From the NCBI RefSeq assembly GCF_050920415.1, contig NZ_CP169309.1: a stretch of DNA of 64,000 nucleotides. One strand, 5' to 3'. Below, one piece after another: positions 4,241-60,117 of the stretch. The notes under the pieces are model-generated. The model was not told the DNA's origin. It made no database searches and was given only the letters and a program-made list of their open reading frames with translations. The position numbers were made by a program, and so were the translations under genes. The first letter of the stretch is position 1, and every line of letters starts with the position of its first letter. This stretch comes from Escherichia coli (GTDB lineage Bacteria; Pseudomonadota; Gammaproteobacteria; Enterobacterales; Enterobacteriaceae).

Positions 4241-4930
4241 TTACTCACTCTCTGCCGGTAATACTGGCATCCAGTCAATCGGTTTCTCGCCACGTTGTTC
4301 CAGCCACTGATTTGCCAGCACAAAATGATTGCAGCCAAAGAATCCACGATGTGCAGAAAGCGGCGATGGATGCGGCGCTTTCAGTACGTGGTGGCGTTGC
4401 TTATCTATAATCGCCCCTTTCTTTTGCGCATGTGATCCCCACAACAAAAACACCACGCCTTCGCGGTGCTGGTTAATCAGGCTGATGACTTTGTCGGTGA
4501 AGGTCTCCCAACCGAGGCTGGCGTGGGAATGCGCCTGACCTGCGCGAACCGTCAAGACGGTATTGAGCAGCAAAACGCCCTGACGCGCCCAGCTCTCAAG
4601 ATAGCCATGATCAGGGCGGGTAAAGCCGGGAATGGTATTTTCCAACTCTTTATACATATTCAGTAATGACGGAGGAATGGCGATTCCGGGACGAACAGAA
4701 AATGCCAGACCATGCGCTTGCCCGGGGCCATGATAGGGGTCCTGACCGAGGATCACGACTTTGACATCGCCCAACTCGGTAAAGCGAAAGGCGTTAAAGA
4801 CATCTTTTTGTGGTGGATAGATAGTGATGCCGGACTGCCGCTCGCTGGCGACGGTTTGAAGGGTATTAAGGAAATAGGGTTGTTGCTTCTCTTCAGCCAG
4901 CACGTCATGCCAGGTTAATTCGTTAGCCAT
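4241..4930 (-). CDS. ung: Uracil-DNA glycosylase
   Basis: 229-aa [27 protein letters not shown]... with [18 protein letters not shown] motif. Confidence 0.97.
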
Positions 4931-5060
4931 CTCGCTCTCCTGCGAATTTTCAATCCGCCTAGCTTAACTGCTTCTTTCTACAGAACAAAACCAAGCTCAT
5001 TTTTTAGACTTTAATGAGTGCAAAAAAATGTAAATTGGTAAAATTTCACACCCGTATAAG

Positions 5061-5127
5061 TTGATGTAAAACAATAAAATCCATTTGCGACCACACTTGA
5101 TGCGTGGTTTTTATTGATTTAAATCAA
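5061..5127 (+). promoter_or_regulatory. grcA promoter region with two FNR-type boxes (TTGATgtaaAACAA at ~5061-5074; TTGATttaaATCAA at ~5114-5127)
   Basis: Perfect TTGAT-N4-ATCAA palindrome about 120 nt upstream of grcA ATG, second half-conserved box ~53 bp further upstream; grcA is known to be FNR-activated. Confidence 0.6.
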
Positions 5128-5234
5128 TGAATCAAGGGTGTTTGAGGAGTATATATACACTCAAGCAACAATGGTTTTACCAATTGGCCGCGACAGGCTA
5201 AACAAATCAAATAATTTTGCCGGGGAGGCATCAC

Positions 5235-5618
5235 ATGATTACAGGTATCCAGATTACTAAAGCTGCTAATGACGATCTGCTGAACTCTTTCTGGCTGCTG
5301 GACAGCGAAAAAGGCGAAGCGCGTTGCATCGTTGCGAAAGCAGGTTTTGCAGAAGACGAAGTGGTTGCAGTAAGCAAACTGGGTGACATTGAATACCGTG
5401 AAGTTCCAGTAGAAGTTAAACCAGAAGTTCGCGTTGAAGGTGGTCAGCACCTGAACGTAAACGTTCTGCGTCGTGAAACTCTGGAAGATGCAGTTAAGCA
5501 TCCGGAAAAATATCCGCAGCTGACCATCCGTGTATCCGGTTATGCAGTTCGCTTTAACTCTCTGACTCCGGAACAGCAGCGCGATGTTATCGCTCGTACC
5601 TTTACTGAAAGCCTGTAA
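5235..5618 (+). CDS. grcA: Glycyl-radical autonomous cofactor (pyruvate formate-lyase repair protein)
   Basis: 127 aa from ATG 5235 ([14 protein letters not shown]...) with C-terminal RVSGYAVRF glycyl-radical motif; GGGGAGG SD. Confidence 0.95.
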
Positions 5619-5640
5619 GGTTTAAGTAGCAAGTTACTAA

Positions 5641-5671
5641 GCGGAAGAGGGCGACCTCTTCCGCTTTTTTT
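5641..5671. terminator. Bidirectional rho-independent terminator between grcA and eamB
   Basis: gcggaagagg-gcga-cctcttccgc hairpin followed by T7 run. Confidence 0.7.
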
Positions 5672-5673
5672 CA

Positions 5674-6261
5674 TTAACAGAAAATGCGCACCGCGCAATA
5701 GACCAGCAACAACGCCAGCACGATATTTAACTGGCGACCATACTGGCGAAACAATCGCTGAAACAGATGCCCCGCCAGCGCCCAGCACACATTGCCAAAG
5801 GTCCCAATCATTGCCAGCAAAACGCTGACGCCAATCACCCAGCTTAACGCCTGCGTTTGTGGCAGGACAAATGTCGACAGTGCTGTAATGCCGTACAAAA
5901 TAATTTTGACGTTCACAAACTGCAAAGCAAAGCTGGCCCAGAAGCTGATCGGTTTGGCCTGAAGTCCGTCTTCCTTGGTTGGACTGGTAGCGATTTTCCA
6001 CGCCAGCCAGACAATATATGCCGCTCCTGCCCAACTCAAAAGGTGCACCGCTGCCGGGTCAATAACAGCCAGTGAAAATGAAATTCCTGCACACAGTAAC
6101 ATCACAATCAAAAATCCCAGACTCATCCCTGCCAGCACGTGGGTACTCCGACGAAATCCATGCGACGTGGCAGAGCTAAGAGCGAGTATATTGTTTGGTC
6201 CTGGCGTCAGGGCGGTAATCAGGGTGTAGGTCCAAAAAGCACTTAAAAGGGTCGGTGTCAC
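5674..6261 (-). CDS. eamB: LysE/RhtB-family cysteine/O-acetylserine exporter
   Basis: 195-aa hydrophobic ORF, length and position match eamB (yfiK). Confidence 0.9.
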   Translation of the reverse strand: MTPTLLSAFWTYTLITALTPGPNNILALSSATSHGFRRSTHVLAGMSLGFLIVMLLCAGISFSLAVIDPAAVHLLSWAGAAYIVWLAWKIATSPTKEDGLQAKPISFWASFALQFVNVKIILYGITALSTFVLPQTQALSWVIGVSVLLAMIGTFGNVCWALAGHLFQRLFRQYGRQLNIVLALLLVYCAVRIFC

Positions 6262-7303: not shown

Positions 7304-7401
7304 GCCGGATGCGGCGTGAACGCCTTATCCGGCCTACAAGATCGTGCAAATTCAATATATTGCATGAGCCATGTAGGCCTGATAAGCGTAGCGCATCAGG
7401 C
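7304..7401. repeat. BIME: inverted pair of REP elements, flanked by two copies of a ccgggcttaaacccgg hairpin (7253-7270 and 7426-7449)
   Basis: gccggatgcggcgtgaacgccttatccggcctac and inverted gtaggcctgataagcgtagcgcatcaggc; typical REP consensus. Confidence 0.85.
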
Positions 7402-12930: not shown

Positions 12931-13886
12931 TGAAGCAACTTTGGTTTGCCATGTCATTAGTGACAGGTAGCCTGTTATTCTCTGCTAACGCCTCGGCCAC
13001 TCCCGCGTCCGGGGCGTTATTACAGCAGATGAACCTGGCCAGTCAGTCACTGAATTACGAGCTGTCATTCATCAGCATCAATAAACAGGGTGTTGAGTCT
13101 CTGCGTTATCGACATGCACGCCTCGATAACCGTCCTCTTGCACAATTGTTGCAAATGGATGGCCCGCGCCGGGAAGTGGTACAGCGCGGCAATGAAATCA
13201 GCTACTTTGAACCGGGCCTTGAACCGTTCACGCTTAATGGCGATTACATTGTTGATTCTCTGCCATCGCTCATCTATACCGATTTCAAACGCCTTTCTCC
13301 TTACTACGACTTTATCTCCGTGGGACGCACGCGTATTGCTGATCGTCTTTGCGAAGTCATTCGCGTGGTGGCCCGTGATGGCACACGCTACAGCTACATC
13401 GTGTGGATGGACACCGAATCGAAATTACCGATGCGGGTTGATCTCCTTGATCGCGATGGTGAAACGCTGGAACAATTTCGCGTGATTGCTTTTAACGTTA
13501 ATCAGGATATCAGCAGCAGTATGCAGACGCTGGCGAAAGCAAATCTGCCGCCGCTGCTTTCTGTTCCTGTAGGTGAAAAAGCTAAATTCAGCTGGACGCC
13601 AACCTGGTTGCCACAGGGGTTTAGTGAGGTTTCCAGCAGCCGACGTCCGTTACCGACGATGGACAACATGCCTATCGAATCACGTCTCTATTCCGACGGA
13701 TTATTCAGCTTCTCGGTAAACGTTAACCGCGCTACGCCATCGAGCACCGATCAGATGTTGCGCACCGGACGCAGAACCGTCAGTACAAGCGTACGTGATA
13801 ACGCCGAAATCACCATTGTCGGCGAACTGCCGCCGCAAACGGCGAAACGCATTGCCGAGAATATTAAGTTCGGGGCAGCGCAATGA
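12930..13886 (+). CDS. rseB: Sigma-E regulatory protein RseB (periplasmic)
   Basis: 318-aa ORF with signal peptide, start overlaps rseA stop (TAATG). Confidence 0.95.
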   Translation: MKQLWFAMSLVTGSLLFSANASATPASGALLQQMNLASQSLNYELSFISINKQGVESLRYRHARLDNRPLAQLLQMDGPRREVVQRGNEISYFEPGLEPFTLNGDYIVDSLPSLIYTDFKRLSPYYDFISVGRTRIADRLCEVIRVVARDGTRYSYIVWMDTESKLPMRVDLLDRDGETLEQFRVIAFNVNQDISSSMQTLAKANLPPLLSVPVGEKAKFSWTPTWLPQGFSEVSSSRRPLPTMDNMPIESRLYSDGLFSFSVNVNRATPSSTDQMLRTGRRTVSTSVRDNAEITIVGELPPQTAKRIAENIKFGAAQ

Positions 13887-14362
13887 TCAAAGAGTGGGCT
13901 ACGGTCGTCTCCTGGCAAAACGGGCAGGCGCTGGTCAGTTGTGATGTTAAAGCCTCATGCAGCAGCTGTGCTTCTCGTGTCGGTTGCGGTAGCCGCGTGC
14001 TGAATAAACTTGGCCCACAAACCACGCATACCATTGTCGTACCCTGTGATGAACCGTTAGTGCCGGGGCAAAAAGTGGAATTAGGAATCGCCGAGGGCAG
14101 CCTGCTTAGCTCCGCATTACTGGTTTATATGTCGCCGTTGGTGGGATTATTCCTCATCGCTTCGTTATTTCAGCTACTCTTTGCTTCAGATATTGCAGCA
14201 TTATGCGGTGCGATTCTCGGCGGCGTTGGTGGATTCCTGATTGCACGCGGCTACTCGCGAAAGTTTGCTGCCCGGGCGGAATGGCAACCGATCATCTTAA
14301 GCGTGGCATTGCCGCCAGGCCTTGTGCGATTTGAAACATCTTCGGAAGACGCGAGCCAGTGA
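13883..14362 (+). CDS. rseC: RseC (SoxR-reducing system component-like membrane protein)
   Basis: 159-aa ORF, overlaps rseB stop; cysteine-rich N-terminus plus TM segments. Confidence 0.9.
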   Translation: MIKEWATVVSWQNGQALVSCDVKASCSSCASRVGCGSRVLNKLGPQTTHTIVVPCDEPLVPGQKVELGIAEGSLLSSALLVYMSPLVGLFLIASLFQLLFASDIAALCGAILGGVGGFLIARGYSRKFAARAEWQPIILSVALPPGLVRFETSSEDASQ

Positions 14363-14559
14363 TTTCACTGGCTTTGTTGCATTTTGCATAACAAATGCGA
14401 GGACGTTTCCAGATACCACAATCCATACCGTATGAACATTTCCTCGCCTCAATGTTGTAGTGTAGAATGCGGCGTTTCTATTAATACAGACGTTAAGCTC
14501 AGAACAGCGACTTCTAAAAGCCTGGTTAACCGGGCATTAAGGCACAATAATCATACTTT

Positions 14560-16359
<1,800 letters not shown>

Positions 16360-17400: not shown

Positions 17401-17591
17401 TATGAGATAAATCTCCCGTGGCTAACGACATCCCCCGTCGTTGTGTATAGAATATTCCCCCGAAGTTTAAGGTTGGCACCTCCAGGTTGCCACGGCACAC
17501 GAAACAGCGTTGGTCCCCATATACCGGTAAACTGAAACTGCAGCGAAGCAGTTAGCAGAGCCATGTATATCAGGTCTGTTTCGTGTGCTGA

Positions 17592-19204
<1,613 letters not shown>

Positions 19205-21084: not shown

Positions 21085-21170
21085 TAAAAAGTAAAACCCC
21101 CGAACTGGTAAGGAACGGGGGTTTTACTTTACAACTTTAATTTTGTGCAGCACGCACCCTCAATGAGAGC
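21085..21170 (-). ncRNA. ohsC: Putative OhsC antisense sRNA (antitoxin of ShoB); boundaries approximate
   Basis: Known shoB-ohsC locus between acpS and yfhL; segment 21145-21164 is a 19/20 direct repeat of shoB 5'UTR segment 21393-21412, so a minus-strand transcript here would pair with the shoB leader; terminator at 21091-21130 fits a minus-strand 3' end. Confidence 0.45.
21091..21130. terminator. Bidirectional rho-independent terminator (acpS on + strand; likely also ohsC on - strand)
   Basis: aaaacccccg-N14-cgggggtttt hairpin flanked by A-run upstream and T-run downstream. Confidence 0.7.
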
Positions 21171-30361: not shown

Positions 30362-30548
30362 AGTGGCTCATTCACCGACTTATGTCAGCCCCTTCGGGAC
30401 GTGCTACATAAAATTCGAATGACGCACAACAAGGTGCCTGCCGTCCAACTTCTGATATCAGCTTAGCTATATCAACCCTCGGGCGAAACGTCGAGTTAGG
30501 CACCGCCTTATTCCATAACAAAGCCGGGTCATTCCCGGCTTTGTTGTA
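30362..30548 (+). ncRNA. glmY: GlmY small RNA (regulator of glmS via GlmZ/RapZ)
   Basis: Starts AGTGGCTCATTCACCGACTTATGTCAGCCCC as recalled for GlmY; ends at aagccgggtcattcccggctt hairpin plus U-rich tail; lies between purL and glrK. Confidence 0.8.
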
Positions 30549-60002: not shown

Positions 60003-60117
60003 AAGATAACAAGATATTAGAATCAGGCCGGGGCGTCTCGCGCTCCGTAAACACGGTCGTACATCCAGCCGGTAGCCTGGTTCCTTGCATTGAGTGATGT
60101 ACGGAGTTTATAGAGCA

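Follow-up and report, generated by a model that had tools for sequence, protein, structure and literature searches.

Tandem FNR boxes upstream of grcA in an Escherichia coli chromosome: very probable identity with the FNR I and FNR II operators of yfiD, and conservation of their spacing

Introduction

Which FNR operators stand before grcA (yfiD) in this Escherichia coli chromosome, and is the imperfect box found upstream of a perfect one a working part of the promoter? We address this question in a stretch of 64 kb, called the window throughout, where both boxes lie in the intergenic region between the divergently transcribed genes ung and grcA. GrcA/YfiD is an autonomous glycyl-radical cofactor that repairs oxygen-damaged pyruvate formate-lyase (PMC3181329), and its gene is induced on a shift to microaerobic conditions (PMC3181329, PMC3798270), the wild-type yfiD promoter being more active microaerobically than under full anaerobiosis (PMC10208419). 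ArcA, as an activator, and PdhR, as a repressor, also act at the yfiD promoter (PMC3181329, PMC3798270). The original prediction had read the two boxes as the dual-site FNR architecture of the yfiD/grcA promoter, and had presented them as an interpretable signal rather than as a novelty.

Results

In the window, the gene order is tapT-trxC-yfiF-ung(-)-grcA(+)-eamB(-)-yfiE(+)-srmB(-). Positions 4900-5260 were matched in 5,425 of 5,426 complete E. coli genomes, in one copy each and always on the chromosome, with 100% identity to E. coli strain MFDS1022581. Identical DNA is annotated in RefSeq as grcA (WP_000627804.1), and the translated product carries the glycyl-radical motif at the protein end.

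5235..5618, plus strand, grcA (yfiD) coding sequence, 127 aa, ATG at 5235, from the translated open reading frame
5639..5666, plus strand, grcA intrinsic terminator, a 12-pair stem followed by a T run

Rfam gave no RNA family in the ung-grcA intergenic region or in the grcA leader. Elsewhere in the window there were six gathering-level Rfam matches, all of which this region of the E. coli chromosome would be expected to contain:

7338-7380, ES036/CssrF sRNA
13847-14678, minus strand, AsrC antisense RNA
17462-17676, rncO leader
21088-21164, minus strand, OhsC antitoxin sRNA
30362-30509, GlmY sRNA
60007-60116, iscRS stability element

The segment that holds both FNR boxes, 5061-5127, reads gTTGATgtaaAACAAtaaaatccatttgcgaccacacttgatgcgtggtttttaTTGATttaaATCAA, and its two operators are as follows:

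5114..5127, plus strand, FNR I, TTGATttaaATCAA / TTGATTTAAATCAA, perfect box, class II activating site centred at -40.5
5061..5074, plus strand, FNR II, TTGATgtaaAACAA / TTGATGTAAAACAA, imperfect upstream box, down-regulating site centred at -93.5

FNR I agrees with TTGAT-N4-ATCAA at 10 of 10 positions, which bears out the perfect palindrome originally described, and it is the sole exact match on either strand of the 64-kb window, where 0.08 would be expected and where 8 of 100 shuffles of the window contained one. FNR II agrees at 9 of 10 positions, the mismatch (ATCAA to AACAA) falling in the promoter-proximal half, and is one of six sites in the window that depart from the consensus at no more than one position. 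The centres, 5067.5 for FNR II and 5120.5 for FNR I, are exactly 53 bp apart. The distance of about 53 bp given in the original prediction was therefore right, and its term "half-conserved" was too weak for FNR II, since nine of ten consensus positions match. Further 9/10 matches occur in the window at 13068, 35893, 43198 and 62880 (TTCATCAGCATCAA, TTGATGTATCTCAA, TTGAAGGTTATCAA and TTGTTCACTATCAA, respectively).

The 304-bp ung-grcA intergenic region (37% G+C) was shuffled 200,000 times. A perfect FNR site arose in 172 shuffles, in 4 of which a second site scoring at least 9/10 lay somewhere in the region; none had such a pair at a spacing of 52-54 bp. From the matches to the consensus, the spacing and this shuffle result, we consider the tandem boxes real and not a product of chance.

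Against K-12 MG1655 the intergenic region aligns free of gaps, and FNR I and FNR II are identical; identity to K-12 strains is 96.4% over the 304-bp intergenic region and 98% over the 316-column MG1655 alignment. The K-12 yfiD/grcA promoter has the same locus, boxes, 53-bp spacing, -10 region, 5' UTR and ArcA/PdhR region, and differs only in that every substitution in this window falls outside both boxes. The nearest ones lie just downstream of FNR I, at 5128 (T/A) and 5131 (A/T) (the -33/-30 region), and in the spacer, at 5094 and 5103. Within a sample of nine E. coli alleles the T at 5128 is unique; it is shared with Enterobacter and Lelliottia.

The promoter variant yfiD-m, mutated in FNR II, is attributed to Marshall et al. 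2001. In the supplement of a 2023 promoter-engineering paper, the yfiD-m primer converts FNR II from gttGatgtaaaaCaa to gttTatgtaaaaAaa; the oligonucleotide for the wild-type yfiD fragment starts with acccgcataagTTGATgtaaAACA, yfiD-m has the box as TTtATgtaaAAaAA, and the oligonucleotide for yfiD-P1, from which the upstream site is deleted, starts just before TTGATTTAAATCAA (PMC10208419). Two predicted sites are listed for the yfiD/ung region of K-12 (U00096.2), namely TTGATTTAAATCAA at 2714579 with a score of 17.25 and TTGTTTTACATCAA at 2714632 with a score of 13.87 (Myers 2013, Table S6). The latter is the reverse complement of FNR II, the two are 53 bp apart, and by the gap-free alignment they map to window 5114-5127 and 5061-5074. 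The K-12 FNR ChIP-chip/ChIP-seq peak for yfiD, at 2714605-2714607 (Myers 2013, Table S5), maps to window 5099-5101, between both boxes, so that the comparison with published sites and ChIP data proposed earlier places both boxes under a single K-12 peak. In the same work, yfiD is classed as "Activated" in the comparison of wild type with delta-fnr, with an aerobic/anaerobic ratio of 0.11, and its activating site is placed at -40.5 in the main table (Myers 2013).

Accordingly, we identify the two boxes with high confidence as FNR I and FNR II of the grcA (yfiD) promoter of E. coli, the dual-site architecture that had been proposed. The finding is already known, as had been anticipated, because this promoter is a textbook case that has been dissected experimentally. 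Judged from the sequence, the promoter of the present strain would behave like that of K-12.

The transcription start was taken indirectly from the K-12 coordinates in Park 2013 and Myers 2013.

5161, plus strand, transcription start derived from K-12 coordinates (U00096.2 2714545), with a 74-nt 5' UTR
5150..5155, plus strand, -10 hexamer TATATA, the first hexamer of a (TA)4 run at 5150-5157

The ArcA site at 2714524-2714555 is given as "-10/+22" of yfiD (Park 2013), from which it follows that +1 is 2714545, that is, window position 5161. This derived +1 puts FNR I at -40.5 and FNR II at -93.5. The title of Green et al. 1998 reportedly names FNR sites at these same two positions. Of the pair -41.5/-93.5 in the original prediction, -93.5 is thus retained and -41.5 gives way to the published -40.5, which fits the 53-bp spacing, since -41.5/-93.5 would need 52 bp and 53 bp is observed. 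A sigma-70 ChIP-seq peak for K-12 is listed at 2714546 (Myers 2013), and the available part of the Kim 2012 supplements holds no TSS entry for grcA. The derived +1, a T, follows the hexamer by only 5 nt, a slightly unusual arrangement.

From the centre of FNR I (5120.5) to the first base of the hexamer is 29.5 bp, the distance of a class II activator, whose centre lies about 29.5 bp upstream of the -10 hexamer; the published start gives -40.5, and 29.5 bp is equally the distance of a -41.5 site with a hexamer at -12. The geometry of FNR I is therefore that of a canonical class II promoter despite the -40.5 numbering. A sigma-70 consensus scan of 4900-5700 gave no -35/-10 pair, as expected of an activator-dependent class II promoter, for which such a scan is uninformative. 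The allele of E. coli MS 85-1 is one TA unit shorter in the (TA)4 run (aligned to 5150-5151), so that either the distance from the -10 element to the start or that from FNR I to the -10 element changes by 2 bp.

Among E. coli genomes the intergenic region shows a fair degree of polymorphism, with identities of 92.5-100%. In nine divergent alleles sampled to span this range, both FNR boxes are invariant (9/9), and variation occurs in about 12 columns of the intervening 39-bp spacer.

For the comparison across species, one genome per species was scanned with the codon pattern of the GrcA N-terminus, a search independent of the promoter, and at least 120 loci were matched, all of which encode GrcA. 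Among the matches listed, the 300 nt upstream of grcA were then scanned in 110 species, and these 110 upstream regions contained 183 boxes of at least 9/10, compared with 4.1 in shuffles. The box-to-box spacing among the matches listed was 53 bp in 62 pairs and 52 bp in 5, and shuffles gave none. When a pair was counted as one box of at least 9/10 and another of at least 8/10 at 52 or 53 bp, it was present, among the matches listed, in 34/34 Enterobacteriaceae, 13/17 other Enterobacterales, 34/35 Vibrionaceae and 4/4 Aeromonas, or 85 of the 90 species of Enterobacterales, Vibrionaceae and Aeromonas, shuffles averaging at most 0.1. By the same definition, none of the 14 Pasteurellaceae and none of the 6 Orbaceae among the matches listed had a pair.

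The upstream box was imperfect in 84 of 86 pairs among the matches listed, which is consistent with a damping role; in these matches its defect always falls in the promoter-proximal half (AACAA, CTCAA, AACAT), the distal TTGAT being kept. A TAYAHW hexamer followed at 29.5 bp in 29/34 Enterobacteriaceae, 12/14 other Enterobacterales and 18/34 Vibrionaceae, and at 30.5 bp in 4/4 Aeromonas, again among the matches listed. In the listed Vibrionaceae the proximal box is usually also a 9/10 match (TTGAC...ATCAA).

Other layouts were seen beside these. Six Pasteurellaceae loci have a perfect box with an imperfect box 43-44 bp downstream of it, the second box being followed by a TTGAA-N4-TTCAA palindrome and TGATAAAAT. 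In Orbaceae (Gilliamella and relatives) there is a single FNR box about 73 bp from the ATG. A grcA orthologue of 128 aa is also present in Neisseria sp. MVDL19-042950, preceded by a 9/10 FNR box at 85.5 bp from the ATG. Among the matches listed, all other named genomes belong to the Gammaproteobacteria, and the presence of grcA outside this class makes horizontal transfer possible.

Around the two boxes, the promoter region contains further elements:

5105..5112, plus strand, conserved tract GGTTTTTA, adjoining FNR I on its upstream side, about -56 to -49
5151..5182, minus strand, ArcA site of three direct repeats, published for K-12
5170..5184, plus strand, PdhR-operator-like palindrome AATGGTtttACCAAT, about +10 to +24

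Conservation of the block gTgtgGTTTTTa extends over 30 Enterobacteriaceae, and its place is taken by a T-rich tract in Vibrionaceae; the GGTTTTTA tract might serve as an alpha-CTD or bending element. We call AATGGTtttACCAAT PdhR-like on the basis of ATTGGT-N3-ACCAAT, which we take to be the pdhR operator consensus, and it is the sole match with at most one mismatch to that pattern in the window. This PdhR-like block is kept across Enterobacteriaceae, Yersinia, Serratia, Hafnia and Edwardsiella, and the block CAACAATGGTTTTACCAAT is conserved in Enterobacterales and not in Vibrio or Aeromonas. Repression of yfiD by PdhR has been reported (PMC3181329, PMC10572922). The K-12 ArcA site, TGGTAAAACCATTGTTGCTTGAGTGTATATAT at 2714524-2714555, has ChIP peaks at 2714537 and 2714570 (Park 2013, supplement), and it reads as the reverse complement of window 5151-5182.

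A perfect 11-nt inverted repeat, AATTGGTAAAA / TTTTACCAATT at 5033-5043 and 5175-5185 (131 nt apart), brackets the entire grcA promoter. Its downstream arm is half of the PdhR-like palindrome, its upstream arm resembles an additional PdhR-type half-site, and the arms could possibly mediate looping or form a second operator. In Enterobacter and Lelliottia, AATTGGTAAGA is found a short way upstream of FNR II.

Two other candidates were set aside. The TTGAT at 5097-5101 has no partner half that would make it a third half-site, and it is TCGAT in several E. coli alleles. Between the boxes, at 5086-5112, a dyad ACCACA...GCGTGGT followed by T5 resembles a small terminator; when the spacer was folded for 81 species, z averaged about -1.5 for either strand in Enterobacteriaceae and was weaker in the other groups, and the dyad was rejected as a conserved structure on this weak z and on its absence from E. 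albertii and a Klebsiella.

Discussion

The promoter described here shares with the canonical class II FNR promoters narG, dmsA and nirB, in which FNR binds near -41.5, the box-to-hexamer distance of 29.5 bp and the want of a recognisable -35 element. It differs from them in the numbering of its site as -40.5, owing to the mapped +1, and in a second FNR site at -93.5 that damps rather than helps. Two-site FNR arrangements are otherwise reported for FNR-repressed promoters (PMC11264516). The same paper cites Barnard, Green & Busby 2003 for strong repression of a class II FNR promoter by FNR at -85 to -95; their tandem-FNR promoters, derived from melR, were synthetic and engineered, whereas the -93.5 site of grcA is natural and falls within that interval.

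The sequence, the identity with K-12, the geometry to the -10 hexamer and the conservation come from the present analysis, and beside them the following course of regulation may be proposed. As oxygen falls, [4Fe-4S]-FNR dimers would bind the perfect box at -40.5 and, from there, would activate RNA polymerase as in class II promoters. Under full anaerobiosis, active FNR would build up until the weaker box at -93.5, which lies five helical turns further upstream on the same face of the DNA as FNR I, is also filled by a dimer. This second dimer would damp activation, and GrcA expression would therefore peak microaerobically. The difference in affinity between the boxes may set the order of filling, the perfect box first and the imperfect one at high levels of active FNR. 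By mismatch counts, such a simple hierarchy of affinity is not evident in Vibrionaceae, because the proximal box there is usually also a 9/10 match.

Tandem CRP/FNR sites are often synergistic, and boxes 53 bp apart, about five turns, lie on the same helical face, both of which would suit an upstream dimer that acts as a co-activator in class I-type synergy instead of as a brake. We consider this very improbable, as later papers describe the opposite: FNR bound upstream suppresses activation by FNR bound downstream, with alpha-CTD said not to be involved (PMC3445967), occupancy of the activating site does not prevent down-regulation by the upstream yfiD site, and synthetic promoters are repressed by upstream FNR placed at -85 to -95 (PMC11264516). 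Moreover, mutation or deletion of FNR II (yfiD-m and yfiD-P1) yields a far higher anaerobic output than the wild type (PMC10208419). The rise in output on mutation of FNR II speaks equally against the idea that the perfect box alone is functional and that the 9/10 box resembles the consensus by coincidence in AT-rich sequence. Matches with at most two mismatches are indeed common in the window (41 against 30.6 expected), and the intergenic region has a low G+C content, but no shuffle reproduced the pair at 52-54 bp, FNR II is invariant in E. coli while the adjoining spacer varies, and the same offset recurs in 85 of 90 species of Enterobacterales, Vibrionaceae and Aeromonas among the matches listed. 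Chance is consequently the least credible of the alternatives, and we regard it as extremely improbable.

It could also be asked whether the upstream box serves the divergent ung promoter. The centre of FNR II is 137.5 bp from the ung start (4930, minus strand), and a divergent ung adjoins grcA in all scorable loci of Enterobacterales and Pasteurellaceae among the matches listed. The distance of the upstream box is, however, fixed to FNR I and not to ung; among the matches listed, ung is adjacent and divergent in just 2 of 27 scorable Vibrionaceae loci, and 34 of 35 Vibrionaceae keep the pair. In the supplements of Myers 2013, ung appears only as a label of the intergenic region and is absent from the tables of FNR- and O2-dependent expression. 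Since the pair persists in Vibrionaceae and ung is missing from those tables, FNR II belongs to grcA rather than to ung, and a role at ung seems very unlikely.

Conclusion

With the boxes read as the FNR I and FNR II operators of grcA, the finding matters for the annotation of this window only as a correct regulatory label, one that explains the oxygen response of grcA and its microaerobic rather than strictly anaerobic peak. What the present analysis contributes is the breadth and strictness with which the tandem layout is conserved, a modest addition. To judge from the upstream regions compared, it is fairly likely that the 53-bp layout is an ancestral feature of grcA in Enterobacterales, Vibrionaceae and Aeromonadaceae, with an upstream box that would be deliberately imperfect, and that Pasteurellaceae and Orbaceae have been rewired. 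The latter two families offer natural variants for probing repression by an upstream FNR dimer, the mechanism of which was called unknown in 2024 (PMC11264516). As the spacing and the weakened upstream box are kept over much of the Gammaproteobacteria, the damping site appears to be under selection and not an accident of E. coli; if this is true, the "activate, then self-limit" layout for a microaerobic FNR response would be no peculiarity of E. coli.
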